Source of the DNA: Psammoneis japonica
Lineage: Eukaryota
Length of the DNA: 22,180 nucleotides
Reading direction: 5' to 3'
Assembly: GCA_008632985.1 (NCBI GenBank)
Contig: QPGO01000261.1
Location: 62,001 to 84,180, forward strand
Below, one piece after another: positions 2,686-22,180 of the stretch. The position numbers and the translations under genes were made by a program. Each line of letters starts with the position of its first letter. Position 1 is the stretch's first letter. The notes beneath the pieces were generated by a model. It was not told where the DNA came from, made no database searches, and saw nothing but the letters and a program-made list of their open reading frames with translations.

Positions 2686-4095
2686 GATTCTAGTGTTGAC
2701 GGTAACTCAGCTGATGATTGTTAATGATCTAGTCTTTGTTAGTTTTTTTAATGTAGTGCTGTAATGCTAAAGAATGTGGACACGAATTGGAAATGACCAC
2801 CAGTTGGATCGCTGTCGTATGTTCGAGATGCCGCCGCCGTCTTGCACCATTTCGTTAAGTCATACGAGACACTGTCTTCTGCCTCGTCTCGTGTCAAGGC
2901 TCGTTCTTGTCCACCAAAACAAAATGCTATGTGCGGCCCACCAATGCGATTCAGGATCTTGCATCATGCTTGTTCCTTCAACTCATTCAAGGAATTCAAC
3001 TTGTGCCCTCCAACCTTGCAGAATGCGGTCCTGCACACAGTTGGAGAGCACTTGTGCTTGACTTGATGGCAGTGGAGGAGATTCTCCGTTGATTGCCTCA
3101 CAGTCATGTCACAGCAAGATTCAAGGGTGGCTGCAGAGTTGCAAATGCTCTGGAGCAAGACACGATGGATTGTTGGGAGGATTGAAAATGTGTCTCGCCG
3201 TTGACAGACACTCAAATTGCAATTGTGGCCCAAAGACAAAAGTGAGAGTTGGGTGGCACTTGGCAAAACAAGCATTGGTGACAATTGTCAAGAGCACAAC
3301 AGTCATGTGGTGCTCCAACCCAAAAAGAGCTCACCTGGAAGGGTGCCACAAAAAAAGTGCAGGAAGGAGTGGAGGGGTGCATCATTTTGCTCTTGCAATG
3401 AAAAACAGAACAACAACAAAAGCAATTGTTCTTTCTGTTTTGCCCTTTCCTTGCTTCCAGGCTGCTGCTCTCATTGTGGCCCAAGCAAGAATGAGCTGCA
3501 GGCACCAAGGTTGCAGGGTTGGTGGGTGGCGGGCTGGTGCAGCTCGCGGCATGCTGCTTCACGCGCCATCAGCCATGCAGCAGGCTGCACAAAGGATGGA
3601 GAGATGATGATGGGCTCCAGCTCTCTGCAACACGCAAGAGGAGCCTCAAGGGTGCTCACAATGAAGCTGCAGTCTCTGGAGGTGAACACTCAAGTTGGCC
3701 AATTTGTGGGGGCTGTGCATCTGACACAGACATCCGAGATGGGGAGCACACCCCCTTTTGCAAGACAGACTGGCATGGACAGGGTGAAGAGATCCGATGA
3801 TCTCTCCTTTGCTCACTTTCTTTCTCCTCCAGTGCATGATTGCCATCTGTCCTAGATGTTGTTAGATTGTCCCAATGCCAGCAGTCTGCAAGGTCATGAG
3901 CAGCAGTGCGCTGTTTTTGTCTTCCTCAATGCAACCACATTTCAACACCCACTGTGTGGTTCGGCGGTGTTTCTCTGTTGAAATCATCGTCTTTGTCACA
4001 GCCTTTTTTCTTTCTTGATTTGTGATCATCACAACCACCATGGAACACAAACCAGTGCTCCATGCAGGATTTTGATTTTTTTTTCCTGAGCAACC

Positions 4096-6239
4096 ATGGT
4101 CAACAAGAACACAGCTGCCATCGATTTGACCAAGATCAAGCCAACATTGGTCAACCTCACACCGGAACATTGCTTGCCCGATGCCCATTGTTTTGCCTGA
4201 ATGAGCTTCACTCAGACAAGACACCTGCTCCTGAAGATCTTCTGGATGAGTTCACTCCTCCCAACCTCAAGAGCAGTGCTGTTGCAACTCTCTTTCACAA
4301 AGTTCTTCAGGAGGATCTCATCATCCCAAAAGCTGCACTGACCAAAGATCTTGCACAGATTGCAGTGCTTGTGGAGAAGGCTGCTCTCTTTGTGGCTGTC
4401 CCTCAAGGTTCTCCAATTCACCTGAACCACACCAATCTTCACAAGGCTGTGATCAAGGCAATCTCAGACAATCAGGACACCACGATGACCCATGTTGGGA
4501 TTGTCTGTCTCCATTTTTATGCTGCTTTTCAATCTTGTGAATGTTGGAATGATGTGTGTGATGCTCCATGCCCAGAACCTTCTGCTGCCCCAAGTTCATC
4601 ACCTTTGCCAGCTGCTGCTGCAGGTTTCACTCCTTGTGACTTTGCCAAGGCCTTGGCTGCTCTGCCTGGTCCAAAAGACTGTGAGAATGCCACAACCAAT
4701 GCACCAAAGAGCTCTTCATCCCCTTCCAAATCTTCTGCCACAACCCTCACCCCATCAAGTGTCCTTTGCACCTTCAACCCAAAAGGATTGCCCACAGATG
4801 CACCAGCGCATTGCCAACACAAAGAAGATGGAAAGGTGATTTTAGGAACTTCACTCACCCGCTGCAAGTCTGGAAACCTCTGCTGTGAAGATGGGCTGAA
4901 TGTCTCATGCTTGCTGGTGGCTCTCTTTTTGTTCATTGTGCTGGATGGGATGCAAAATCCTTCCTGCAGGATCCTCTTGCTTGCAATGACATTTCTCCTC
5001 AAGGAATTGTGCATTGCACACTGCTGCAACTCAACAAGCCACCATGGCATGTGGCACGTGCATGCATCCCCTCTGGTGTTTTATCAAGGATGGCAGCAAT
5101 TGGGGGTTTGCAAGTGGCAATGATCCCACTGATGACCTGCAGCTTCAAATGTGGGGCCCACTTGATCAGATGAAATGGACTGTCTTTCAGTGCATTCAGA
5201 AGGTTGGACTTTTTTCTGCTGACTCCACGTGCCCTGACATTGTTCACCAATGTTGTGGAGATGGACATGCCGCTCTCAAGATGATCCCATTTGATGTTCT
5301 TCCTGTTTGGACAAAGCTTCCATTCAACTCATCACAAGCCACCAGCACCAGAACAACCTTGCTGTTGTCAGCTGCCATGCTCTGTCCCAAGACTTCCTTC
5401 AACTTCAGGCAATCATCTCCAATGTTGATGCATCCCTTTATGATCCCAGTGAGCTTAATGTTTTTCTCAGCAATGCCTGTCATGTTGAACGTCTCCACTG
5501 CAAGACTGCTGAAGCCCATGAAGACAAGAACAAGAAGCGTCAGTTTGCCCAGCAGAAGATTGTTGAGACTGTTGCTGTGCTTCTCAAGGAACCGGATGGT
5601 CCTGCTCTCTGTGTGACTCCTCCCCAAGTGTCCACCACATTGCATGCACAATCAGACCCCTTGCCCACAAGTGAATCCTCCTTTGGTGGCACCCCTCTGC
5701 AGTCTTGATTTGCCAGCTGCTGATGATCCATCTGATCAGCTGACTGATGCTGAGAAACCCTCCATGGAGCTGTCTCCTCCTCCAGTGGAAGTGCCCCCTG
5801 AAACTGTGGAATTCTTTGTCAATGAACACTTGCTGCCATGGAGGTGCCCAGGATGATGAAGCACAGGTGCTGCATGGTGTGTTTCCAAGGCTTGTGTCTG
5901 TGGGCTCAAGGCTGCACCATCCCTTGCACAGAATTGTCCTTGCCTTGTTTGTGGTGGTGACCATTGCTTTGCTGATTGTCTGGTGCCAAACAATGCTGAG
6001 TGCTTGAAATCTCACCTCTCATCCAATTTAGCCAATTTCTTCAATGCAATCAGTGTGCTCAAGCCACATTGCTTGGGGCTGACAAAACCAAAGAGGATGG
6101 CTCTGCTCCCTTGGATTGTTCTTGGGGCCATTGTCACATTCAGATGTGCAATGCCACCCATCCACCACCAATCTGAAACCACCACATTGCCAGCAGGGCA
6201 ACTGTGAAAGAGAGTCCAACCGATTCATCACCTTCCGCT
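4096..6239 (+). mobile_element. Outer Ty1/copia element A, degenerate gag region (left of the nested insertion)
   Basis: A fragmented reading frame starts at ATG ~4096. It includes DIVHQCCGDGHAALKMI and ALSQDFLQLQAII..ELNVFLSNA, resembling diatom copia gag, and a zinc knuckle CLVCGGDHCFADC (CX2CX3HX4C) at 5941-5979. A tentative short LTR-like TGTTG...CAACA lies at 3857-3947. Confidence 0.7.
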
Positions 6240-6488
6240 TGAGCAAATTGTGATGCATCATGTGGAGTCTGGTGTGCTGTGTGCTGTTGCACATCAGACA
6301 TCAGCAACAGTTGTAGCTCAGTCAACTGTTGAGATGTGGTGTTGGAGCAAAACTTGATGGGTCATCCTTCAATGGTGCTCACTTGTTGCACACAGTCGCA
6401 ACAGGCCTTGGAGCATCTTTGGGATTGTTGTTTTGTTGTCATGCCACCACTGTGAGTGGCTGAGCCATCATGCAGCTGGATTTGCTTG
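6240..6488 (+). repeat. LTR 1 of element B
   Basis: Similar to 8980-9229 and 11716-11957. Starts TGAGCAAAT and is followed by a PBS-like motif. Confidence 0.9.
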
Positions 6489-6500
6489 CTTTGTCAGAGC
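6489..6500 (+). promoter_or_regulatory. Primer-binding-site-like motif (second copy at 9230-9241)
   Basis: CTTTGTCAGAGC lies directly after the LTR. It resembles the tRNA-Met PBS TGGTATCAGAGC with TA->TG, but the match is only partial. Confidence 0.55.
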
Positions 6501-6723
6501 CACAGTCCACACTCAAAGGTTTTTTGGTTGACACATGATGACAAGCATGAAAGTTGATGGTTGTGTCTTGATGGCACAGTTCCAATGACAACTGCCGACT
6601 GGCTTGAGGGTGCACACCAATGAGCATTGCCTGGCATCAGCGCATGTGCAAAGCAGTGTTTTGACATGATTCTTCTGACACAATGGCTGCTCTCTCTTGA
6701 TGTTTGATGACTCAGGTTTCACC

Positions 6724-7950
6724 ATGGTGGCTTTGCCTCCAAACCCAATGGAAACAGTCCTCAACTGTAACTGGATCAGTTTTCAGTTGCCTGCTCAGCG
6801 CAATGCTGTCATGACCAATGCTGCTGCATTTGATGGTGTCGTGGACATGAAAGAGTCCAACATTGATGTGCTTGCATTGTCCCACGCAAGGAGGACTGCC
6901 GCTGAAGGGCATTGTCACTTTGGATTGGCTTGAACCCATTGTCTCAAGTCCTCAATCCATTGGGTGCAGGATTTTGAATGTGCAAGCAAAAATCTGACCA
7001 TTGATGGTTTGGATCAGGTGAGGTTCCATGATGCACTGTCTGCCACTTTCACAAGGGCCAAGATTTGCAACCAGATGAGGGAGCAATCCAAGTCTGTTGC
7101 TTGTGAGGCATCTCTTGGACTCTTGGAGAGCAACAAAGGCTTGGGCAAAATGGAGTGCTGCCTTCAAGAACAAGCAAGCAGTGGATCAAGGAGCACCGCA
7201 ACAGCCAGAATGGTCATCTTTGCTGCAAGTCACTGGAGAACCACTGCAAGGGCAAGGGCAATGCTGCCTGTTGCATCTCGGAAGCTGAGCATCCAGAGAG
7301 TGCTCTCTGCAGCAGAAGTGAGCATTCCATGATGTTTGAGATGTTTGTCATCAAGCTTCAGGAGATGTTCAACATTTTTGAGGAAAATGACAAACCCAAG
7401 ATGGAGGCCCAGAAGCTGTGCTTGTCATTTGACAAGGTGCAGCACCAGCAACTGCAGAACACTGTGGAGACCCTGAAGGTGCAGAACAAGTTTGGAGGTG
7501 GGATCACTTTTGCCACTGCATGCAACCATCTTGCCACAAAAGTTGCTGCACTCTCAGAGACAGTTGCACACCATTGTGTGATTTCTTCTCTTGCGTCCGG
7601 AGTCAGCAAGGAAGGTGATTCCATTTGCAATGAAGATGGATCCATTGACACTGGATTTGACAAGAACTGGTGTCAATTTAGCAAGGAAGACAAGAAGAAG
7701 GTTGTGGACAAGTGCTTGTGCCTGGGACTCAAGAAGAAGCCAAGCAACCCAAAGCATCATGCTGCATCCGTCAAGTTGCTCAAGGAGAAGAATCGGAAGC
7801 TGTCATCCCAGCTTGAACAAGTGAACCACACTGTTTCTTCCCTCAGCACTGGCAACAGCACTGACACTGCTGCAGACAATGCTTTGGAAAGAGGCAGCAA
7901 AGGTGGCAACAATGCTGGAGATGTGTTTGGGGGACACCAGAACAAGTTGA
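6724..7950 (+). pseudogene. gag of element B, copy 1 (copy 2 at ~9463-10685)
   Basis: MVALPPNPMETVL..HFGLA*THCLKSSIHWVQDF..KQWIK..SLENHCKGKGNA..MFEMFVIKLQEMFNIFEE..ITFATACNHLA resembles diatom CoDi gag. It contains stops, frameshifts and internal deletions. Confidence 0.8.
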
Positions 7951-7957
7951 TTGCTGT

Positions 7958-8910
7958 GTGATTTTTGACATCAAGTTGGGAGAGAACTTTTGGCGCAAGA
8001 GCAGAATGGTGGTGGGTGGTCACATGACTGATGCCCCATCTGCTGTCACCTGCTCCTTGGTTGTTTCCAGGGATTTGGCAAGGATTGCTCTTGCTCTTGC
8101 TGCACTCAATGACTTGGAAGTGTTTTTGCCTGCGACATCCAGAACACCTGCTTGACAGTGTCATGCCAAGAAAAGACATGGACTCATGCTGGCGAGAGTT
8201 TGGTGGGGAGAGCAGCTCAATTGTGGTGGCATTCAGGGCTTTCTTGGTGGAGACGCTTTGTGATCCAGGGTGCAAGCCCAGTGAGGTGGACCCCAATGTT
8301 TGGATGCAACCCGCAGTGAAGCCAGATGGGTTTGAGCACTGCAAGTGCATCTGGTGCACATGGACAATTTGTTGTCAATCAGTCACAAGCCAATGAATGC
8401 CATGGATGGGGCATCAAGCTAAAATTCAAGCTCAAGGACAACAAGGTGGTGGAACCGCCCCGACTCCTGCTTGGGTGCTCAGTTGGCAAAAATGGACTTA
8501 GCTGACAGCACCACTTGCTGGATGATGTCAGCAGAGGCGCATTTTCAGGCAGCAGTTCAGAATGTTGAAGAGAAGTTGGCCAAGCAAGGGAAGAGATTGA
8601 TGATCAAAGCTTGCGCACCCCTGAGCAGTGGACACAAGCCGGAGCTGGACACTCTGGGTGAACCAGATGCAGAAGGTCTCAACTGCTGCCAAGAGATGAT
8701 TGGCATTTTGGTTTGGGCAGTGGAATTGGGTGGAGTTGATGTCCATCTGGAAGTCTCCATTGTGTCAGCTCACCTTGCCTTGCTGCGCATTGGTCATTTG
8801 GAACAGGCATTGCATGTCTTTGCACATCTCAAACAGGTTCCAAAGCATTGGGTGGCATTTGATCCTCCACATCCGGTCATTGTCAAGACCAGATTTCAGA
8901 AGTGCAATGT
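7958..8910 (+). pseudogene. Copia reverse transcriptase fragment of element B, copy 1
   Basis: IFDIKLGENFWRKSRMVVGGHMT..VVSRDLARIALALAALNDLEVF..AFRAFL..DPNVWMQPAVKPDGFEHCKCI-LVHMDN (YVDD site at 8357-8368)..HKPELD..CCQEMIGILVWAVELGGVDVHLEVS..GHLEQALHVFAHLK. Protease, integrase and RNase H are absent. Confidence 0.92.
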
Positions 8911-8979
8911 GACTTGTGCGCTGGTTGAATTGTGTCCATCAAGTGCATCCTTGACTTGTCAGAAACATTTCAAGAGGAC

Positions 8980-9229
8980 TGAGTAAATTGTGATGTGTCA
9001 TGTGGAGTCTGGTGTGCTGTTGCACATTGGACATCAGTCATTGATGGATGGAGCTCGCTCAGTCAACCATTGTGATGTGGTGTTGGAGGGAAACTTGATG
9101 GGTCATCCTCCAATGGCACTCACTTGTTGCGTGCAGTTGCAACAGGCCTTGGAGCATCTTTGGGATTGTTGTTTTGTTGTCATGCCACCACTTTGAGTGG
9201 CTGAGCCATCATGCAGCTGGATTTGCCTG
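8980..9229 (+). repeat. LTR 2 (central, shared, chimeric) of element B
   Basis: Preceded by the PPT-like CAAGAGGAC and followed by the PBS-like motif. Its 5' part matches LTR 3 and its 3' part matches LTR 1. Confidence 0.9.
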
Positions 9230-10692
9230 CTTTGTCAGAGCCACAGTCCACACTCAAAGGTTTTTGGTTGACACATGATGACAAGCATGAAAGTTGATGG
9301 TTGTGTCTTGATGGCATGTTCCAATGACAACTGCCGACTGGCCTGAGGGTGCACACCAATGAGCATTGCCTGGCATCAGTGCATGTGCAAAGCAGTGTTT
9401 CGACATGATTCTTCTGACACAATGGCTGCTCTCTCTTGATGTTTGATGACTCAGGTTTCACCATGGTGGCTTTGCCTCCAAACCCAATGGAAACAGTCCT
9501 CAACTGCAACTGGATCAGTTTTCAGTTGCCTGCTCAGCGCAATGCTGTCATGACCAATGCTGCTGCATTTGATGGTGTCGTGGACATGAAAGAGTCCAAC
9601 ATTGATGTGCTTGCATTGTCCCACACAAGGAGGACTGCCGCTGAAGGGCATTGTCACTTTGGATTAACTTGAACCCATTGTCTCAAGTCCTCAATCCATT
9701 GGGTGCAGGATTTTGAATGTGCAAGCAAAAATCTGACCATTGATGGTTTGGATCAGGTGAGGTTCCATGATGCACTGTCTGCCACTTTCACAAGGGCCAA
9801 GATTTGCAACCAGATGAGGGAGCAATCCAAGTCTGTTGCTTGTGAGGCATCTCTTGGACTCTTGGAGAGCAACAAAGGCTTGGGCAAAATGGAGTGCTGC
9901 CTTCAAGAACAAGCAAGCAGTGGATCAAGGAGCACCGCAACAGCCAGAACGGTCATCTTTGCTGCAAGTCACTGGAGAACCACTGCAAGGGCAAGGGCAA
10001 TGCTGCCTGTTGCATCTCGGAAGCTGAGCATCCAGAGAGTGCTCTCCACAGCAGAAGTGAGCGTTCCATGATGTTTGAGATGTTTGTCATCAAGCTTCAG
10101 GAGATGTTCAACATTTTTGAGGAAAATGACAAACCCAAGATGGAGGCCTAGAAGCTGTGCTTGTCATTTGACAAGGTGCAGCACCAGCAACTGCAGAACA
10201 CTGTGGAGACCCTGAAGGTGCAGAACAAGTTTGGAGGTGGGATCACTTTTGCCACTGCATGCAACCATCTTGCCACAAAAGTTGCTGCACTCTCAGAGAC
10301 AGTTGCACGCCATTGTGTGATTTCTTCTCTTGCATCCGGAGTCAGCAAGGAAGGTGATTCCATTTGCAATGAAGATGGATCCATTGACACTGGATTTGAC
10401 AAGAACTGGTGTCAATTTAGCAAGGAAGACAAGAAGAAGGTTGTGGACAAGTGCTTGTGCCTGGGACTCAAGAAGAAGCCAAGCAACCCAAAGCATCATG
10501 CTGCATCCGTCAAGTTGCTCAAGGAGAAGAATCGGAAGCTGTCATCCCAGCTTGAACAAGTGAACCACACTTTTCTTCCCTCAGCACTGGCAACAGCACT
10601 GACACTGCAGACAATGCTTTGGAAAGAGGCAGCAAAGGTGGCAACAATGCTGGAGATGTGTTTGGGGGACACCAGAACAAGTTGATTGCTGT

Positions 10693-11648
10693 GTGATTTT
10701 TGACATCAAGTTGGGAGAGAACTTTTGGCGCAAGAGCAGAATGGTGGTGGGTGGTCACATGACTGATGCCCCATCTGCTGTCACCTGCTCCTCAGTTGTT
10801 TCCAGGGATTTGGCAAGGATTGCTCTTGCTCTTGCTGCACTCAATGACTTGGAAGTGTTTGCCTGCGACATCCAGAACACCTGCTTGACAGCATCATGCC
10901 AAGAAAAGACATGGACTCATCCTGGTGAAGAGTTTGGTGGGGAGAGCAGTTCAATTGTGGTGGCATTCAGGGCTTTCTTGGTGGAGATGCTTTGCGATCC
11001 AGGGTGCAAGCCCAATGAGGTGGACCCCGATGTTTGGATGCAACCCGCAGTGAAGCCAGACGGGTTTGAGCACTGCAAGTGCATCTGGTGCACATGGACA
11101 ATTTGTTGTCAATCAGTCACAAGCCAATGAATGCCATGGATGGGGCATCAAGCTAAAATTCAAGCTCAAGGACAACAAGGTGGTGGAACCGCCCCGATTC
11201 CTGCTTGGGTGCTTGGTTGGCAAAAATGGACTTAGCTGACAGCACCATTTGCTGGATGATGTCAGCAGAGGCGCATTTTCAGGCAGCAGTTCAGAATGTT
11301 GAAGAGAAGTTGGCCAAACAAGGGGAGAGATTGCTGATCAAAGCCTGCACTCCCCTGAGCAGTGGACACAAGCCAGAGCTGGACACTCTGGGTGAACCAG
11401 ATGCAGAAGGTCTCAACTGCTGCCAAGAGATGATTGGCATTTTGGTTTGGGCAGTGGAGTTGGGTGGAGTTGATGTCCATCTGGAAGTCTCCATTGTGTC
11501 AGCTCACCTTGCCTTGCTGTGCATTGGTCATTTGGAACAGGCGTTGCATGTCTTTGCACATCTTGGGCAGGTTCCAAAGCATCGGGTGGCATTTGATCCT
11601 CCACACATCCGGTCATCGACAAGACCAGATTCCAGAAGTGCAATGTGA
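10693..11648 (+). pseudogene. Copia reverse transcriptase fragment of element B, copy 2
   Basis: Near-identical to 7958-8910. ACDIQNTCLTA corresponds to the copia DIxNAYL motif, and HMDN is at 11091-11102. Confidence 0.92.
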
Positions 11649-11715
11649 CTTGTGTGCTGGTTGAATTGTGTCCATCAAGTGCATCTTTGACTTGTCAGAA
11701 ACATTTCAAGAGGAC

Positions 11716-11957
11716 TGAGTAAATTGTGATGTGTCATGTGGAGTCTGGTGTGCTGTTGCACATTGGACATCAGTGATGGCTGGAGCTCAGTCAACCGTTG
11801 TGATGTGGTGTTGAAGGGAAACTTGATGGGTCATCCTCCAATGGCACTCACTTGTTGCAAGCAGTTGCAACAGGCCTCAGAGCATCTTTGGAAACATTGC
11901 GTCATCATCACACTGGCGCTGTGAGTGGCTGAGCCATCATGCAGCTGGATTTGCTCA
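11716..11957 (+). repeat. LTR 3 of element B
   Basis: Starts TGAGTAAAT after CAAGAGGAC, ends ATTTGCTCA, and is followed by the TSD CGCT. Confidence 0.9.
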
Positions 11958-11961
11958 CGCT

Positions 11962-14050
11962 GAACTGCCTCTTTCCCACGCATCATTTGCTGACATTCTT
12001 TTGGATTTGAAGAAGTCAAGCACTCCAAACATTGCAAAGATTCCTGATGATGACACTGACATTGTGAAACAGGGGAGGGATGACACTCACCTTGCTTCCA
12101 TTCAACATGATCCATCTCTCCCACTGTCCAATGACACCCACCAAGACTTTGAACATTTTGACATGTCCCAACATCAACACTTGTCTCCATTGAATGCTGC
12201 TTGCATCTCCCCCATCCTTTCTCTGCTAGATCCTCCTGCCCAGTTTCCAACTGTGGATGCTCTGGTTCTCCCCATCAACCACATGCTCAGTGATTCTGTG
12301 ACACATCATGCACAGATTGACATGGGTGCTTGGGTCTCATGTGCAGGGCACAAGAACCTTCTCCACGCTTGTGGACCTTTTGGTCCTGACAACCCATGTC
12401 CCTTGAAGATGTTGCTTGCAGTTGAAGGATCTGATGCAGTGCCTCATGGCTTTGGTTGCTTGCAAGCACCTGCAGACAATGCAGACAGCTTTCTCCTTGT
12501 GTGCACCTTTTGCCATCCAAGTCTGCATTCTACCTTGATCAATGAATGTGATTTTGGATGAGCTCCTGGTTTGCCAAAATTAGAAAACATTGCATCTGAA
12601 GTCATCCAGAAGACATGTGCTGACAGTGCTTGCATGTGTGCAGCAACAACTGCTGCCAATGCACCCCCAGCAGTTGCTCATGGTGTTCTCTGGCATGGCA
12701 AAGTTTCCACCCAAGCGTTGGTCCCTCCTTCCATGACACCCACACTCCCAACACCACTGGCATCTCTTTGTGATTCTGCCACTGATTTTGAAGATGCATG
12801 TCCTTCCATGACACCCACACTCCCAACACCCCCAGCATCTCTTTGTGATTCTGCCACTGATTTTGAAGATGCACGTCAGTGTGCAGCATTTTATGTTGAT
12901 GTTCAACAAGAATCTGGAACAGACCCCTTGGTCAACACTGAGCTCTTTTTGATGCAATGCCACTCTACACCATCACCCACACCAGCCCTCCATGTTTCAA
13001 CTCCTGTTTGGTCATTGAAGGTTGAGACTGAACATCTTCCATGGCACCAGCATCTTGGTCATCCAAGTGATCATCACTTGTGCAATGCTCACAAGTGCAT
13101 CAAAGGTGTCCCAAAGTTCCCCCATGAATGATCAGCTCTCAATGCTTGTCCAATGTGCATTCAAGCAAAACAGGCCTCTGAGAATGAGGATTGTGCATCT
13201 GACTGTCTTGGGTTTGATGGCGAAACTTGTTAGATGGCAGTGTGTGTGCACCATTCCTGCGCATTTCATGGTGCAGCACAGGTCTCAAAAAAGCCAGCCC
13301 TTTCAAGTGGCTTTGCCAATTCCTGGACTGACATTTGCCAAATTTTATGACAAACATGCATTTGTGGACCAAGGTGGAGAATTGCACAAGAGTTCAAAAG
13401 TTTGTGACCACTTCCAACACAAAATCTAGCATGACTTGTGTCCTGCAGGTGCTGGAACATCCAGTCAATGTGGACCTGTTGAATGCTCACATTTGACTGT
13501 TGAGAATGCAGTTCATGCATTTTTGATTGTTGCCAATCTTCCAATTTGATTTTGGCCCTGTGCTTTTTGTCACTGCCTGCAAATCAAGAGTGCTGCTCCC
13601 ACCAAAGATCAAGATGCAGCACCCATCACACTGTTGCCACTGGCAAGGTTGATGACTTCACTGCTCTGAAGACTTTTAGCTGCCAAGCATGGGCACTGCA
13701 ACCATCAGAATTGTCCAGCTCAATTCAAGACAAATTCCAAGAAAGGTGTCTTCCTTGGTCATCTCCCCAACACTTTGAAGAATGTCTCATGGTGAGATCC
13801 AGTGACTGACAAGGTCAAAACAGTGAAAAACGTCCACTTTGATGAGGGCATGAATGACTTGCCATCAGATCACCTCTGCCCAATGCTGCTCATTTGCAAT
13901 GCATGGAAAATGGCCAAGAATGTCTTCCAGCTGAAACCCAGGAGACCACGGTTCCCATGTTCACATCACCCTTGAATCCTTTTGCCAAGACTGTTGCATG
14001 TGCCATGAAATGCCCTCCAAAGGATCCCACCTGTGGTTTTGTGGTGAAAT
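11962..14050 (+). mobile_element. Outer copia element A, degenerate protease and integrase (truncated before RT)
   Basis: Protease HAQIDMGAWVSC (DTG->DMG at 12319-12327). GAG-pre-integrase WHQHLGHPS..GVPKF and CPMCIQAK. Integrase core AFVDQGGELH, SSQCGPVEC and FWPCAF. SH3-like LKTFSCQAW..KGVFLGH..VHFDEGMNDLP. Confidence 0.88.
12727..12873 (+). repeat. 75-bp in-frame tandem duplication (2 units)
   Basis: Units start at 12727 and 12802 and encode PSMTPTLPTP(L/P)ASLCDSATDFEDA. Confidence 0.95.
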
Positions 14051-14364
14051 GCAAACTGAGTCTGGTGTGAAATGGCGGAAGCTCAGCTCCCTGATGTGAA
14101 AGAAGCAATGCGGTCCACCAAGATCAAATGGTTGTGTGATCCCAGGCCAGTCATGAGCAAAAAGGTGCAGCACCCTGGTCTGCTGTCAGGCACAAGACAT
14201 GCCAGTCTGTGTGGAGCTCCAGGTGGCTCAGACTCAGGGGTGAGTCAGCCAGGTGGTGCAGTTGCTCTCCATGGGTGGGCTGGTGGCAGCACTCTGGCAT
14301 GCATGGAAGCAAGCTGCAAGCCATGCCCCATGGCAGCGCAAGGGCTGGCCAATGCCCAAATTGA

Positions 14365-15400
14365 TCAACGCACACATTGACTCACTCTTTGGCTGAAAAG
14401 GGGCCCAAAACACTGAGGTGGCTCCTGTTTTCCAATGAAGCAACAATGTCTTTCCTTCAACACATCCAGCTTTCTTAAATTTCCCATCTTCCAACTTGTT
14501 CCAACACACTCCTGCTGCTTGCACTGATGATGTTCTGCACCCTGACATTCTGGTTCTGCATTTCCTTGTGGGATGTCAACATTGTGCCCATCAGGTGCAT
14601 CAGTTGTTTTGATGCTTTCATCATGGCGACCATTTGGTTGACAAAAATGTGGACCAAGCTGACTGCCAAATGCACTCATGATCTTGCACACTTGATCCAC
14701 AAAATGCTTCATGTGATCAGCCACCAAGCCAAGTTTTCTCTTGCACAGCATCACTGTGCAGACCATTTGCTGTCATTAGCTCCATTGCCCAGCCATTGCT
14801 GACAACTCTGCTGCCCAATTCAAAGAACTCCAGATTGTGGCAAGTCCATTCTTTCTTGGGCCTTGCTTCAATGGTTTCATGTTTGAAGAATTGTGCCAAC
14901 TTTAAAGCATCACCGACAACTCCATTGTTGTCTTGCACTGACCCAAATTGAAACCTCTTCTTGTCCATGGGCCAATTGCTGGCATGTTCTGCAAGAGGTT
15001 CACATGTCTCAGCAATCCATGCCACATGTGGGACAACCTGATGTCAACATCCTGCCCACACAGAAGACATCATTTGTGGTCAATGCAAAATGAAATTTGT
15101 TGCAAAGACATCCTGCGATCATTGCCATGGCACATTCTGTCAGGTTGGCCTCATGGCAGAATCCTGGCTTGTGACATTCAAGTCTTTGGATGCAGGCTTG
15201 ACCTCCAATGAGCTGCCAACATTCCTTGGTTTTCTGTGCTGCTCTTGCATGGCCCTGAACTGTGGCCATTGTCTCCTCTCCATTGTCAAATGAGGAGATC
15301 ATCAGTGCAGCAGCCAGTGGGCAGGAATCCTGTGAGGCTTCCCACACTTGCCTTGGATGCTTGTGCAGCTGTGGGTTGCCTGCAAAGAGTCGACTGTGCA
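14365..15400 (-). pseudogene. Unknown protein family relic, copy B
   Basis: Paralogous to 15440-16690: AAQKTKECWQLIGG / MIAGCLCNKFHFAL / SGCPTCGMD / FQFGSVQDNNGVVGDALKLAQFFK..EARPKKEW..LEFFEL / VQAAGVCWNKLEDG. Confidence 0.6.
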
Positions 15401-15439
15401 ACCTTCAAACCAGTGACACAACAATGTGATGTGATGCAA

Positions 15440-16690
15440 TTGCACCCAATCAACAATCCTGATGTGCCAAATGATTCACACTCCAAAGAGTGAGAACAAC
15501 AAAACAGATGTGTGTCCAATTGGCAACAATGTTTTTCTTTGATGTCAACAAGTCACCACATCTTTTGGCATGGCAGAAGCTTCAATGTCTTTTCTTCAAC
15601 ATGTCGGGGTTTCTCAAGTCCCCATCTAACAACTTGTTCCAACACACTCTTGCTGCTTGCATCAATGATCTGGCATTTACATCTTGGCTTTGCAGCAACG
15701 TTTGGGATTAAAATTTCCCCAAACGATCCTTCCCATGTTGCGAGCACTTCAGTTCTATCAACATGGCAATTCAGCAATTCACACACCAGTGCTCCACACC
15801 TTTGTCATTGAAGTTAAGAAGCACATCGAACTCATTTGTCATGCATCCCACCACATCAACAAAGCTCTTCACATGGGCACCATGTGAGCCATCCTTGCAC
15901 TTCATGATTGTGCGGACCCATGTCACTGACAAAGCCTGTCATCCATTCATCAATTCTCCATGGATGCAGCTCACAGAATTCCATCTTGCAACAGCCCCAC
16001 CTTTGTCTGGGCCTCAGTTCAACCACTTTACACTGGAAAAATTGTGCCAGCATCAAAGTGTTGAAGACAACTCTGCTGTCATCTCTCACCAAACCAAACC
16101 GCCAATGTGTCTCATGGTCATGTTGGTTGGGTGCACACTCCATCAAGAGCTCACATGCCCCACATGCATCCATGCTGCAGGCAGGGCAGCTCACTGTTGA
16201 CCATTCACTGAGTTGGTTGATGTCTTCCTTGTCAAGGGCAAGTCTGAACTTGTTGCCCCTTGCTCCTGCCATCATGTTCTCATCAAACTTCTTCTGAGGA
16301 AACACACCATCATTGTCACAACAGCAAGTGCACACCCAATGCAAGGCTTTGCCTCCAACCATTTGCCAATGCTCCTTGGTCTTGTGTGCCTCTCTCACAC
16401 ACTCCACCATTTTGCACCACACCTGTGTTCCTTCTCCAAACATGGAGATCATTGGTGCAGTGGCAGACATGTGCTCACATGCATCTCTTGTCCTCTCCTT
16501 CCTGCAGCCATGTGTCTTGCACACTGTCTTAAATCTTTCTGTCCACAGCTCGTGCCACTTTGCTTCAAGCTCCTTTTTTCTCATCTGGCACTCCGGTGAA
16601 GTGATTCCATCCAAACTTTCTGTCCTCAGCAAATTCCAGCAACAACAACCTGAAATCTGCCAACTCCCATCAGACATGCAGGTCACCAGG
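15440..16690 (-). pseudogene. Unknown protein family relic, copy A
   Basis: EAHKTKEHWQMVGG / MMAGARGNKFRLAL / VSCPACSMD / WRFGLVRDDSRVVFNTLMLAQFFQ..ELRPRQRW..MEFCEL / MQAARVCWNKLLDG..CFVVLTLWS. Confidence 0.6.
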
Positions 16691-17103
16691 TGTTGTCATG
16701 CACATGCTTTCCACAAACAAGCTGTGATCTTCCAGTGCCTTCTGGCAGTCTTGATCTTGGCATTTCTTTTTTTTTGGCTTCCAGCAGTTTGCTCAACACC
16801 TCAAACTTTTCCAAATGCAGCCTCAGCCACTGTCATGAGAGTGCATTGTGCACCTCCTAGAAATCTTGCACTCTGCCTGGCTCATCAGGCAGCAAATTGG
16901 TGTCGTGAACAGCAGTTGACATCATGGTCATGGCCAAATCAACAATTGTGATTGGTTGAGCCATGTGGATGAACACAAAAACAAAACCAAAATTCCATCT
17001 TTAAAGTGCTGCTGCACTTCCACCCCGCAACTCCGGCAACAAGCTGGCCCACACCCCCAGCACACTGACAGTGCGGCAGGAGCATGTGGCAATTGGCCAA
17101 GAT

Positions 17104-17127
17104 CGGCATCGTCCGCAGACGATGCCG
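17104..17127. repeat. Perfect 10-bp inverted repeat (hairpin)
   Basis: CGGCATCGTC-CGCA-GACGATGCCG. Confidence 0.85.
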
Positions 17128-17253
17128 TGCCAAAGTGACATGTGAATGAACACATCTTCTGGACTCAACACATCATTGCAACTTCTGGGTTGCAGGGTTC
17201 TTTCACCCACACACATCAGCATTCTTGTGTCACAGACAGGAGAAACTCTCCTG

Positions 17254-17853
17254 TCACACTTGACAGCCCATGATGGCTTGTTTGAACTTTTGAAGCTTCT
17301 TGCCCTTCAATGGCTCAGTCATGAAGTCTTGAACCATGTCATTGGCAGGACATCACTCCACTCTGAGACTGCCTTTCTTGAGCTGGTTGGTTGCAAAAAA
17401 AAAGTTGACTGTTGAGTGCTCTTGACCTCTTGCATGCACTCTTGCGCCCGCCAGCTTCCAGAAACATGGTGCTCTGTTGAACTGCCTCACTTTCTTTTCC
17501 TTGTGGCAGCCTGACTTGTCTGCTGCTGGCACCACCATGTCAATGTTGTTCTCAATGTTAGCCTTTTTGCACTGAAGCTGTTGCAAGCCATGTCTTCAAT
17601 GGACCTTGCCAGATGTGTGCCTTGAGTGCACTCCTTCTGCATGCACCTCACACAATCTTTTCCTTGACATCTTCAAAGGTTGCATTCCAAGAATTGCTGC
17701 TCAGTGATGAAGGGCAAAACTTCATCTCAGATTGAAAGCCTTTCTTGGCAGTGGTCTTCTCCTTGCTTGAGAGGACCTGTGACTTTTGTCACCCTTTCTG
17801 CGACCACATCATTGGCCTTGGTTGTTGCTTCTGCTGCTTCTTCTTCTGCTCAT
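17254..17853 (-). mobile_element. Mini copia element C: gag N-terminus joined to RNase H C-terminus
   Basis: ATG at 17853 (MSRRRSSRSNNQGQ), then EMKFCP..ATFEDVKEKIV (gag-like start). After ~17480 it reads SAMFLEAGGRKSACKRSRALN..FFATNQLKKGSLRVE*CPANDMVQDFMTEPLKGKKLQKFKQAIMG, the copia RNase H end (KHIDIR/ADxxTKPL region). A 9-bp-stem hairpin at 17235-17255 overlaps the stop. Confidence 0.78.
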
Positions 17854-18079
17854 GTTGCAGGCCCTCTGTGATTTGTTAACTGCAGGTGGCAAAAAATTGA
17901 CAAGCACCAACACAGTTGTGATGTTGACTCTTTGGGGTGAATGTTGAACCAGCAAGTCAATGGCACCAAACCAGAATTCCACACGGCTTCCTGTGCTCTT
18001 GTTGTTCTTGCTTTGGCTGCTTGTGTGGCTGTGGGTTGCCTTCAAAGCCGTCTGTGCAAATTTCAAACTTGGAATGTAA

Positions 18080-18290
18080 CAGGTGCCCAAAGATGCCAAT
18101 GCAATGCAATCATGTTTTCTTGACAAACCAAATGAATTGCTCCAAAGATTGAGAACAACAAAACAGACAGAATCAGACCAGTGATGGTGCATTTTTCCTC
18201 TCAAAGAGTTGCAGCATCCACCATGCAAGGAGCAACAACATCTTTCCTTCCACTTGTTCCAACAAGACTTCACACAAATGTCATGTCAAC
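18080..18290 (-). pseudogene. Unknown protein family relic, C-terminal fragment (copy C)
   Basis: SCWNKWKERCC..CFVVLNLWS. The DNA CTCCAAAGA..GAGAACAACAAAACAGA is shared between 18140-18167 and 15481-15508. Confidence 0.55.
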
Positions 18291-19796
18291 ATCAACCTTT
18301 CTCTTTCTATGAACACATGGGAAGAGGAGTCATTGGTTTGCAAATTGCTGAAATGAAGCTCAAAACACATGAGGACACTCATGATTCAGGCAAAACAGCC
18401 TAAAACCCAAAAAACCAAGAGCAGGCGAGGGCTGTTGTATTTTCTGCTGTTGGTCAGATCTCATCACTTCCTTTTTGATCTAAAGGCCCTTCACACAAAG
18501 AGAAAATGGCCAGCTCATTGCTGCCACCTGGCACTGTTGCCATGATGAGCACTTGCAATGGCACAGATGTGCCGGAGGCCAGTGCTGCAGCTGCTGGGGA
18601 TCTGCCACTCTGACTGCAATGAAGAGCAAACTCACCACCACCAGAGATAATTTGCCCTTGTTGCTTTGCCACAGACCAGAGAGGACATGCCATTGTGGTG
18701 CACACAAAACATGTCCAAAATCACCTTTGCAAGTCTCCAGCCCACAAACTCACATGTGAGCCACCCTCAACTTGCCTCAACAATGCACCCATGCACAGCC
18801 ACAGAGCTGATTTGGTTGAACAAGCCCTTTGATGAAGATGCAATCACAGAAGTCATTGTTGCTCCACAGCAACAAGAGGTGACAAACAATCTGTCAGCCA
18901 CACTTTTCCCCTGCTGAGCAAAGAAAAGTGCAGGCATTCTTGGCTCACAGCCCAGAGAGTGTGCTGTCATTTTCTTTCATGTCAAATGTTGAGTCAGACA
19001 TCCAGTCCAAAGACCATTTCTTCTGGTGCATTTTCCATGGCATCACTTTTTCTGTCTTTTAAGCTGTGCCAATCCTTGTTGCCAGAGACCTTGGGAGTGA
19101 GATGGACTTGGATTCCTGCAACAAAATGATCAGCCTGCAGCATGAACCTTGCATTGCTGAGTGCTTTACATCCTGAGGCTGAGGACTTGTGGGAGGAGCA
19201 GGTTGGGAGCACATCATCTGTCCTGATGCAGCAAGTCAGTTGTGCTGGACATTGAGTTGTGCAAGGACAATGACATTGGGTGTGGCCAGATTGCAATAAA
19301 GTAGCAAGGACCATAATAGCAGAGAAGTATGGAATCGTTCTCTTCTTTTCAATTTATGGTGAATGTAAACAGTTCGTTGTGTTTGCGAGTTCGTCGAAAG
19401 GTTCTTCAATCAAAGTGTACCCACGGCAGTAGTTCCGAGCTTAGCGACTTTCTCTACATAGCTCTGGCGTTGCAAGGACCTGCGGAAAGTATAGTTCAAA
19501 GTTCCGTTGGCTCGTATACAAGCGCGATTTTTAAAAGTGGTATTCTGAAAGCTAATAAAAAAAGGTAGCCGTCCTGAATGCTGTGCCGAGAAGAAAGATG
19601 CTTTAGATACTGCCTCTAAAAGTTGAAATTAGAAAGGTTGAAGAGTCTTTCATTAGGCCATTCTCTCTTCACCCTCTAGTGTTGAGTTAAGCTCAAAAGC
19701 TAGCTCTAGACAGAGAGACAGAGGAGCAGGTGTCGATCGGTCGATCGATTACTTTAGCGTTGCTACGCATCCGCACTGCAGCGCCGGCGTAACAGG

Positions 19797-20218: not shown

Positions 20219-22180
20219 CTAACTAGAGATTCCGCTAGATCCAATATTTTGAGCATGAGCATATACTTCCAAACTTGGGGGAATGGGAGGAGTTGTTTCG
20301 TCCAGGCGATGCTCCTCGACGTATCGCACCAGCTCATCTTTCAATGATAATCCATCCCATTCTGGCTTGTCTCGATCACACTTGAGACGTTCAATGAGGT
20401 CTGGCCACAATCTTCCGACTAGATACCTTGCGGGATCATCTATCCGAGCCTCGAGGTAGATCATCCTCTTTAGAGCTGGAGCAAAGTCGTCGACTTTGTC
20501 TAGCTTCCAAAGATACGACAGTATCTTCAAGTTTTTCTGCTCCCGTCGCATCATAAAAGTGTTGAGCTCCATGACACAGTAGCGACTCTCTCGAAAGTTG
20601 GGTGACAATATAATCACGGCATGGGTACACGTATGCGCAGCTTCGAGTAGAGAACGCATCTGGTCTTCCCCAGTTTTCAAGCTTCCATCATCGATGAAGG
20701 TATTGACGCCCAATCTTTTCGTGAGAAGCCAATGCGTAGGACGAGCAATACTCTCTTTGGCATCGATACCGCAGTGCGACAAAAACACATACGGATCGCC
20801 GTCAGGGTCGACCGGCCATTCAAGGTTGGGATTCGTCAGCCCAGCCACTGATAACTCTCCCACAGATGTCTCGATACCATCCAACAGTGCTTGCGTGTGC
20901 AAGCTAGTGACGTTTCGTTCACCAGCTGTACTCGGCGAGACGTAGGTTTGCGAATGACCAGGTATATCTTGTGTCGGATAAAGGTGATTGAGGCGCTCCA
21001 TGATTTTGTCGAGCAACTCATCCTTCCGACCTTTCTTGCTATCATGGAAAGTTCCATCTCCAGCATGGAACACCCTTCCGACTTGAACAACTTCTTTGCA
21101 TACATCACACACGAGACAATCTGTTGTCCTCTCCTCAGCTACTTCAGACCAGTCGAATTCGTGGCACTCATCGACGGCTCTACCGAGCTCAATGCAGCGT
21201 GCACAAGCGAGTACACAGTCGAAATCCAAACCTGGAAAATGATCGTTTCGTTCCGCGATAACAAATTCGACGGCACCTTGTAACAACCTCCACATGCCCC
21301 TGTCAACGCGAGCACCACGAGCTGTGAATACTAACCATGCTTCTCCTTCCATCTCAACAATCTCCGACCGCAAGCGACGGTTGGTGTTCTCGTCGAGGAC
21401 AATCGCGCCATACAGCCATGCACATATGCATTTCCCATGCGCATGAGTCGCGGCGGCAAAATGTGCAGCGAGACTTGGGGGGCATCCTTCCCACATCTTA
21501 AGGCGTAGTTCTTGCTCCTGTTGGCCATCAGACACTAAATTTGGCCACGCCTTTTGCAACTCTTCCGCTTGTACTTTTTTTCGTTGTTGAAAGAGAACCA
21601 CGGGCTTGAGGCCACGCAAACTGTCATCAAGCGAAGATCCAAAAATTACGTCCGAATCCAGAAGCATCTGGAGGATCATTGGGAAGTCCTGGTGATGATT
21701 CACTAGGTCATTCCACAAGAAGGGAAGAATCACGGGATCCAACTCTCCCTTTTCTGCCAGCTTCTTGAGTCCCCCAACTATGAGATTCCGCAGTCCAGCT
21801 GGCGGTCTCATAACTCCTTTTACAAATATTCCAATACTTTTTTGGAAAGCCGGTGATTTTATTTTTTCCAGCGTCAACGTGTGGTCTATGAGAGGTTTGA
21901 TCAAGTCGGTTACAAAAGACGGTTCCAAATACGCCAACCCAGCATCAACAAAAGTACTGCCCTGGGCTTCAAGAAGTCCTAGTGCATCATTGAACGTAGT
22001 GTCCTCAGCCAAGGGGGCGTGCAAGAAACGGAATTGATTCCACAATGACTTGAGCCTCTCAACTGAACAATAAGGTCCTTTTGCAGATCTATCACTTTCG
22101 TCGCCGTCTGCAGTCGTCTTCATATTCCCAATCTCGCCCAATGGGATAGCATCATCGGAACTTGCTACAGAGAAAAGCGC
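20219..22180 (-). CDS. COR-TIR protein (3' part of a probable ROCO gene), 5' end outside the window
   Basis: The frame is open to the window edge (ALFSVASSDDAIPLGE...). COR-like segments: LLEAQGSTF..YLEPSFVTDLIKPLIDH..GELDPVILPFLW..CPPSLAAHF..AWLYGAIV..CVLACARC. TIR domain: YVFLSHCGIDAKESIARP..TFIDDGSLKTGE..AVIILSPNFRESRYCVMEL. Confidence 0.85.
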   Translation of the reverse strand, partial: ALFSVASSDDAIPLGEIGNMKTTADGDESDRSAKGPYCSVERLKSLWNQFRFLHAPLAEDTTFNDALGLLEAQGSTFVDAGLAYLEPSFVTDLIKPLIDHTLTLEKIKSPAFQKSIGIFVKGVMRPPAGLRNLIVGGLKKLAEKGELDPVILPFLWNDLVNHHQDFPMILQMLLDSDVIFGSSLDDSLRGLKPVVLFQQRKKVQAEELQKAWPNLVSDGQQEQELRLKMWEGCPPSLAAHFAAATHAHGKCICAWLYGAIVLDENTNRRLRSEIVEMEGEAWLVFTARGARVDRGMWRLLQGAVEFVIAERNDHFPGLDFDCVLACARCIELGRAVDECHEFDWSEVAEERTTDCLVCDVCKEVVQVGRVFHAGDGTFHDSKKGRKDELLDKIMERLNHLYPTQDIPGHSQTYVSPSTAGERNVTSLHTQALLDGIETSVGELSVAGLTNPNLEWPVDPDGDPYVFLSHCGIDAKESIARPTHWLLTKRLGVNTFIDDGSLKTGEDQMRSLLEAAHTCTHAVIILSPNFRESRYCVMELNTFMMRREQKNLKILSYLWKLDKVDDFAPALKRMIYLEARIDDPARYLVGRLWPDLIERLKCDRDKPEWDGLSLKDELVRYVEEHRLDETTPPIPPSLEVYAHAQNIGSSGISS

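Follow-up and report, generated by a model that had tools for sequence, protein, structure and literature searches.

Evidence for post-insertion loss of TpA dinucleotides in a doubled Copia-type retrotransposon of the diatom Psammoneis japonica

The window analysed here is a 22,180-nucleotide stretch of the 91-Mb genome of the diatom Psammoneis japonica (assembly GCA_008632985.1, contig QPGO01000261.1, positions 62,001 to 84,180 of the forward strand), and all coordinates refer to it unless another locus is named. Comparison with full-length relatives gives positions 6240–11957 the order LTR–body–LTR–body–LTR (LTR, long terminal repeat), and the region is one internally deleted Copia-type LTR retrotransposon insertion whose body was later doubled. 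It lies in a sharply bounded block (2930–19296) that holds 51 TA steps, where about 1089 would be expected, and 132 CG steps. The ratio of observed to expected TA is 0.05 in the block compared with 0.43 and 0.65 in its flanks, where the genes retain TA, and the corresponding ratio for CG is 0.15 compared with 1.03 and 0.94. We consider it highly probable that there is a TpA-specific process acting after insertion, and we describe below the evidence for it, its relation to CpG decay, and its possible chemistry.

A single insertion with a doubled body

The features of the element are as follows.

2930..19296, no strand assigned: block of decayed mobile DNA around the element, poor in TpA and CpG, from TA and CG counts
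6236..6239, + strand: left CGCT target-site duplication; relatives likewise have 4-bp duplications
6240..6488, + strand: LTR1, the original 5' LTR, matching the LTR pairs of full-length relatives
6489..8979, + strand: internal copy 1, from tblastn with P0001, blastn against full-length relatives, and RVT_2 in relatives
8980..9229, + strand: LTR2, recombinant, LTR3-type to about 9138 and LTR1-type from about 9150
9230..11715, + strand: internal copy 2, with the same three deletions as copy 1
11716..11957, + strand: LTR3, the original 3' LTR, from LTR pair comparison
11958..11961, + strand: right CGCT target-site duplication, matching the left copy

Because one CGCT target duplication of 4 bp encloses the whole of 6240–11957, as in the relatives, the structure derives from a single insertion. 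Internal copy 1 comprises a leader, a gag remnant (about 6724–7946) and a reverse-transcriptase remnant (7941–8908), and has lost 190 bp of gag near 7173, some 2.8 kb from within pol, and another 0.6 kb at the pol 3' end. LTR plus body of the two copies align with no large gaps and agree at 2649 of 2751 columns, and LTR1 and LTR3 are 82.6% identical. The three LTRs compared in a preliminary description of this DNA are not three independent copies, LTR2 being a recombinant: its left part agrees with LTR3 at 24 columns and with LTR1 at 1, and its right part agrees with LTR1 at 20 and with LTR3 at none. This chimeric structure indicates that unequal crossover duplicated the body at a time when LTR1 and LTR3 were already divergent, and it makes most of the LTR examples in that description older than the duplication.

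A short-read contig over the body had a depth of 180.7, compared with 93.6–105.3 for seven listed single-copy contigs in the block, and alleles of both copies occur in this collapsed contig; its reads may come from the very sample that was assembled. These observations support two real body copies and show that at least some of their differences are no consensus errors. That such errors might dominate the differences, a possibility raised at the outset, is disfavoured by the mixed alleles and by the high proportion of transitions (46 of 51) among the substitutions.

Loss of TpA and decay of CpG

Conserved tyrosine codons reveal the ancestral state. When the reverse-transcriptase remnant was compared frame-wise with 120 intact homologues, all 10 of 10 conserved tyrosine columns read TGC, CAC or CAT in both copies; other conserved residues were largely kept (Phe 6/6, Asn 4/4, Lys 7/8, Asp 7/9, Glu 9/11). 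The tyrosine of the YxDD motif, found in 120/120 homologues, is CAC at 8357, so that all 11 conserved tyrosines of the reverse transcriptase have become Cys or His. Genomic copies read TAC/TAT, TGC/TGT or CAC/CAT at the gag tyrosine positions of the intact P0001, two of the seven positions being mostly Phe.

We counted TA-class sites, CG-class sites and their contexts in 23 copies belonging to two families (9 and 14 copies), and left L025 and L041, near-duplicates of L023, out of the strand-coordination, site-class and context counts. TG or CA occupied 4740 of 5791 TA-class copy-sites (82%), CG-class sites had changed at 10% and 16% in the two families, and A-to-G changes after A, C or G amounted to 0.57–0.77%. 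Many genomic copies have lost TA and retained CG, and the TA process is therefore independent of CpG decay.

The two LTRs of a retrotransposon are copied from one template at insertion. LTR sites were polarised with 21 relatives, a TA origin being assigned where TA is retained in a relative and CG occurs in none of them. The sites that carry the comparison of LTRs and bodies are listed here.

6256, 6305, 6409, 6437, 6442, 6445, no strand assigned: TA-derived, resolved in opposite directions in LTR1 and LTR3, from relatives
6244, no strand assigned: TA-derived, CA in LTR1 and TA in LTR3, from the terminal inverted repeat and family-B LTR starts
6308, 6327, 6376, 6397, 6426, 6434, 6487, no strand assigned: CG-derived LTR differences; relatives keep CG
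8830..8833 versus 11564–11567, + strand: best TA-derived body difference; copy 1 has CA, copy 2 has TG and two additional A-to-G changes
7308..7310 versus 10047–10049, + strand: codon featured in the preliminary description, TGC versus CAC; the ancestor may be TAC, CGC or CAC

The outer LTRs thus have seven TA-derived differences in total, site 6295 being counted with neither class. Sixteen other LTR pairs, with 210 differences, showed CA/TA at 42, TA/TG at 35, CA/TG at 57, a CG-involving state at 43, and other changes at 33; a surviving TA faced TG or CA in 77 of the 210. Since the outer LTRs differ at TA-derived sites in both directions, and the 16 pairs do the same, the changes occurred in the chromosome after insertion, which upholds the original proposal that RNA editing was not responsible. 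Loss was patchy within single elements, with 12 versus 2 (L026), 16 versus 6 (L053), and 3 versus 14 (L054) TA left per LTR.

The two bodies (6489–8979 and 9230–11715) differ by 51 substitutions, including five adjacent CA/TG swaps where a null mean of 0.27 was expected and none of 20000 shuffles reached five; the swaps are therefore in excess of chance. A single ancestral dinucleotide had been proposed for them. We found two, TA and CG. Nineteen body sites read CG in one copy and TG or CA in the other, a few of them possibly CG gains, and a CG origin can be traced for the swaps at 8058 (Ser in 120/120 homologues) and 8159 (CG in 8/8 relatives). The swap at 8480 would also have come from CG, because TA there would give a stop. 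At 8830, intact homologues have Leu in 114/120 and Lys in 118/120, and relatives have TA, TG and CA, never CG. Sites 6768 and 6926, where one copy has TA, are probably TA-derived, with new C-to-T or G-to-A changes as a possibility; background mutation by itself should create about 3 TA steps, and 7410 is one such gain.

The showcase sites of the preliminary description are right in their letters and were partly misread. Its letters and coordinates are right for TGC (7308–7310) and CAC (10047–10049) and for TGTAAC (6766) and TGCAAC (9505), and its quoted LTR differences were confirmed. The codon at 7308, however, is not the conserved gag Tyr it was taken for: a gap-free codon alignment places it opposite a His codon (CAC/CAT in 15/15 relatives shown, His in P0001), and the Tyr is the next codon. 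Its firm assignment to TA, the product of a shifted nucleotide alignment, does not stand. At the GTCAAC site (6327) the three reported states are real, but CG in 18/18 family-A LTRs marks it as a CpG site, as does CG in 17/18 family-A LTRs for GGTGCTC/GGCACTC (6376). About half of the example sites overall proved to be CpG decay or to lack a clear ancestor.

Within the window bodies, 28 of 32 TA-class sites were resolved identically in both copies, and most TA loss therefore predates their split, as had been suggested. The further suggestion, that mutation went on after the split, is borne out for CpG decay, with about 22 sites changed at CG, and is weakly supported for TA, where only 8830 is clear and 6768, 6926 and 7308 are ambiguous.

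Three other features of the copies deserve mention. Differences are sparser in the 5' part of the bodies (15 sites in 6489–8050, 1.56 kb, versus 36 in 8051–8979, 0.93 kb; p=1e-6), possibly through later gene conversion. Copy 2 has runs of adjacent transitions (CAAA versus TGGG at 11564–11567, GG versus AA at 9666–9667) that are possibly single multi-base events. At two TA-class positions one of the copies has CG (6448 versus LTR3, 8808 versus 11542), a state reached only if both bases change and hardly ever seen elsewhere in this class (4 cases).

The outcome of TA loss was balanced between products (TG 827 and CA 753 in one family, TG 1555 and CA 1605 in the other). There were no strand-coordinated clusters: TG/CA concordance was 0.49–0.54 in all 8 distance bins of both families, from 2 to 3200 bp, with one of the 16 bins at z=3.0. 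Whether a site was hit was weakly clustered along copies, which copy-level differences could explain. The change rate depended on the base after A (C 0.52, T 0.50, G 0.32, A 0.30), and the pyrimidine preference was mirrored on both strands (78 versus 22 sites, p=2e-8; 46 versus 14, p=4e-5). TA surviving in the block is mostly TTAG, TTAA, CTAG, CTAA and TTAT; within the element, 7679, 8420, 8499 and 8984/11720 are among the steps that survive. The lack of strand coordination between TG and CA outcomes, and the more frequent hits at TAC/TAT than at TAG/TAA, are new here. Together these results exclude RNA or cDNA (complementary DNA) editing and disfavour patch synthesis and long processive tracts; they leave a site-by-site deaminase or a decaying base mark at TpA.

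The element family and its surroundings

The reverse-transcriptase family RVT_2 was found in the relatives L027 (E 8e-14) and L033 (E 2e-14), and the window's own remnant could be aligned to 120 RVT_2 proteins; Pfam assigned no family to gag or to that remnant. Ty1/copia elements have their integrase upstream of the reverse transcriptase; here the reverse transcriptase lies about 900 residues into pol, and Pfam reported no integrase domain in the mutated copy. At positions 5763–9998 of L027 the pol frame is open over 1412 codons, yet Cys or His has replaced 17 of its 24 conserved tyrosines and tyrosine makes up 0.8% of residues, versus a median of 3.5% in the 120 homologues. Intact as it looks, this frame is likely dead.

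Typical Ty1/copia elements have TG...CA LTR ends and 5-bp target duplications. The present family departs from both, since the LTRs of the relatives have CG...CG ends, carry a terminal inverted repeat of 9 bp, and are flanked by target duplications of 4 bp (L027/L043, L028/L044, L021/L022, L029, L033). The outer TG...CA ends in the window (6236–6250, 11947–11961) are products of CpG decay that mimic the canonical ends. The Ty1/copia-like elements of diatoms are known as CoDi (excerpted text of PMC2806351), and the family shares with them the LTR–gag–pol–LTR layout and the RVT_2 reverse transcriptase, but differs in its ends and duplications. The commonest phylum in the nearest named gag cluster is Bacillariophyta, a phylum being recorded for only 4 members. 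A metagenome scan with P0001 for intact DNA of the source element found none among 72 candidate stretches, and no unmutated copy was present among the genomic copies aligned.

Three genes with normal TA, identified by Pfam, flank the block.

1–1159, − strand: gene with LRR plus Roc domains
1768–2685, + strand: Brix-domain gene
20219–22180, − strand: TIR-domain gene

A left-flank search for the empty insertion site returned only paralogues of 77–84% identity (the Brix end, in four places), and the right flank has a paralogue of 78–90% within 10 kb upstream (L031). Downstream of LTR3, 12000–14100 on the + strand reads from its motifs as a second decayed retroelement-like pol, with zinc-knuckle-free integrase-region motifs such as WHxxLGH, and a 75-bp tandem repeat occupies 12726–12875 within it.

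Mechanism, alternatives and known systems

We propose the following history. At insertion the LTRs of the element were identical and a target duplication of 4 bp was made; internal deletions followed, about 95% of its TA and about 85% of its CG were lost, and its LTRs fell to 82.6% identity. Unequal crossover between the 3' and 5' LTRs, to which the chimeric LTR2 points, would then have doubled the body, and the copies have since diverged by 2%, mostly at remaining CG steps, with perhaps a few further TA losses at most. The CG part of the decay is probably ordinary deamination of 5-methylcytosine. For the TA part, our best guess is an adenine deaminase that acts on DNA: TpA is palindromic, and conversion of A to inosine would be fixed as TG if it struck the top strand and as CA if it struck the bottom strand. 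Such an enzyme would hit silenced mobile DNA site by site, on either strand, favouring A before C or T, a preference that we take to resemble the TadA substrate and did not use as evidence. It would create no stop codons and would remove tyrosines, including that of YxDD, leaving copies crippled and frames open. We give even odds to a DNA adenine deaminase as the agent, and the account as a whole, a single dead, doubled element that lost its TA after insertion, with a host adenine deaminase as the likely cause and CG decay added, seems to us about as likely to be right as wrong. More tentatively, and with less confidence than either, it is possible that diatoms have an undescribed defence enzyme that naturally edits A to G in double-stranded chromosomal DNA, prefers TAY, is directed to silenced transposons and has a common origin with the chlorarachniophyte process; it would kill elements by stripping tyrosines, leave frames open and still be active on old copies.

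Several points weigh against this proposal. Searches of the genome for a causal deaminase gave only housekeeping-looking genes; the matches, labelled by motif reading, were dCMP deaminase-like, one TadA-like, one ADAT2-like, two ADAT1/ADAR-domain loci, and others, and TadA-like and ADAT2-like genes are expected for tRNA editing anyway. The missing strand coordination is at odds with a deaminase working processively along single strands and agrees equally well with the decay of a base mark, and the damaged base, A or T, is indistinguishable from sequence. The contrast between 82% and 0.57–0.77% is widened by the way the classes were set, polymorphism marking out the TA class and a 75% majority the control columns. 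Nor are the copies wholly independent of one another, with median TG/CA concordances of 0.585 and 0.63 and one pair that shares 99.3% identity, and the case for TA loss continuing after the duplication is weak.

Under a rather unlikely but serious alternative, a base mark on TpA in silenced DNA, either a modified adenine or a thymine oxidised by a TET/JBP-type enzyme, decays or mispairs to turn A:T into G:C as a by-product of silencing. N6-methyladenine can deaminate and 5-formyluracil can mispair. The palindromic target, the equal strands and the independence of sites mirror CpG decay, which likewise lacks strand coordination, and CG is lost in the same blocks. However, young copies have changed at 82% of TA and 10–16% of CG, which is fast for passive decay, and the comparable hypermutation of Bigelowiella natans is, in the main text of its description, switched on and off between lines (bioRxiv 10.64898/2026.01.13.699255). 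Pfam Tet_JBP had no match in the genome, but its control was silent too. An error-prone polymerase placing G opposite T during heterochromatin repair or replication is improbable. Pol eta-like polymerases have a WA motif, the three A-to-G changes in a row at 11565–11567 would suit them, and the window lineage has AG at 17/111 invariant AA sites versus 5/141 GA sites; within families, though, AA changed to AG at 0.77%, no more than CA (0.69%) or GA (0.57%), and the same-strand clusters expected from patch synthesis are absent.

A misassembly, with stacked alleles or consensus errors producing the tandem and its differences, seems to us quite improbable. A mis-join at the LTRs would likewise make a chimeric middle LTR, and among the contigs listed none was shown to bridge LTR2; the doubled depth with mixed alleles, and transitions in a biological context, point the other way. 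Such an error would not affect the TA conclusion. Still less credible is the view that every CA/TG swap is CpG deamination and that TA was always rare in these elements. It accounts for most copy-to-copy differences (19 single CG sites, 3 of 5 swaps, seven LTR sites), and C5-methyltransferase matches exist in the genome, but it cannot explain conserved Tyr turned into Cys or His, nor copies without TA that retain CG, and as a complete account it is refuted by the tyrosine polarity. Least credible of all is the view that element RNA underwent A-to-I editing, or the cDNA deamination, prior to integration. ADAR enzymes do favour A-to-G changes that follow U. LTRs of one insertion that differ at TA sites both ways refute this route, and the strands are equal and uncoordinated; TAG is disfavoured here, whereas 5'UAG is named for wild-type ADAR2 in the excerpted text of PMC10661471. 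One-strand bias, coordinated clusters and identical LTRs, which set APOBEC- or ADAR-type editing apart, are all missing.

The result would carry a process so far described in one 2026 preprint on viral inserts over to the retrotransposons of a far-removed algal lineage, with LTR pairs as proof that it acts on chromosomal DNA. If a mutator that turns A into G in DNA exists in nature, it would represent a new kind of genome defence and interest those who develop base editing. In such genomes, ages based on LTR divergence are inflated and open reading frames are no sign of live elements, and the context and strand results offer a fingerprint for testing candidate enzymes and the B. natans list of 231 mutations.

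Among known systems, repeat-induced point mutation (RIP) of ascomycete fungi converts CpA/TpG to TpA, is confined to repeats and cripples transposons; it is triggered by repeat pairing in the sexual cycle and involves a RID-type enzyme. The changes described here likewise keep to repeats and to one dinucleotide, are transitions that fall on either strand, and disable transposons, but their polarity, fixed by the conserved tyrosines, is opposite: TpA is lost, GC is raised, and no stop codons arise. Deamination of 5-methylcytosine at CpG fits the change from CG to TG/CA, including most differences between the tandem copies, and leaves TA untouched; CpG methylation has been reported for LTR retrotransposons of Phaeodactylum tricornutum (excerpted text of PMC2806351).

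Our literature search found no report of TpA hypermutation in diatoms and nothing on the sequence context of TadA, most subscription papers lying outside its coverage, and the only account of TpA hypermutation it returned is the B. natans preprint of Mettrop et al. (bioRxiv 10.64898/2026.01.13.699255). According to its main text, integrated DNA from NCLDV (nucleocytoplasmic large DNA viruses) and from virophages undergoes de novo TpA to TpG/CpA hypermutation at a rate raised about 1000-fold, on in some lines only; TpA-poor sequences are enriched for reverse-transcriptase and DDE domains, and an ADAT2-like deaminase is proposed as the enzyme. The words 'diatom', 'CpG' and 'context' are absent from that main text, which addresses neither a +1 pyrimidine preference nor missing strand coordination. 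As far as this source goes, the two systems share A:T to G:C change restricted to TpA (here 82% versus 0.57–0.77%), TpG and CpA products, action on integrated chromosomal DNA, and confinement to foreign DNA with host genes spared. The P. japonica case differs in its LTR retrotransposon targets, its diatom host, and the added CpG decay, and its erasure is near complete, with observed-to-expected TA of 0.05 in the block compared with 0.45 in the B. natans viral region.

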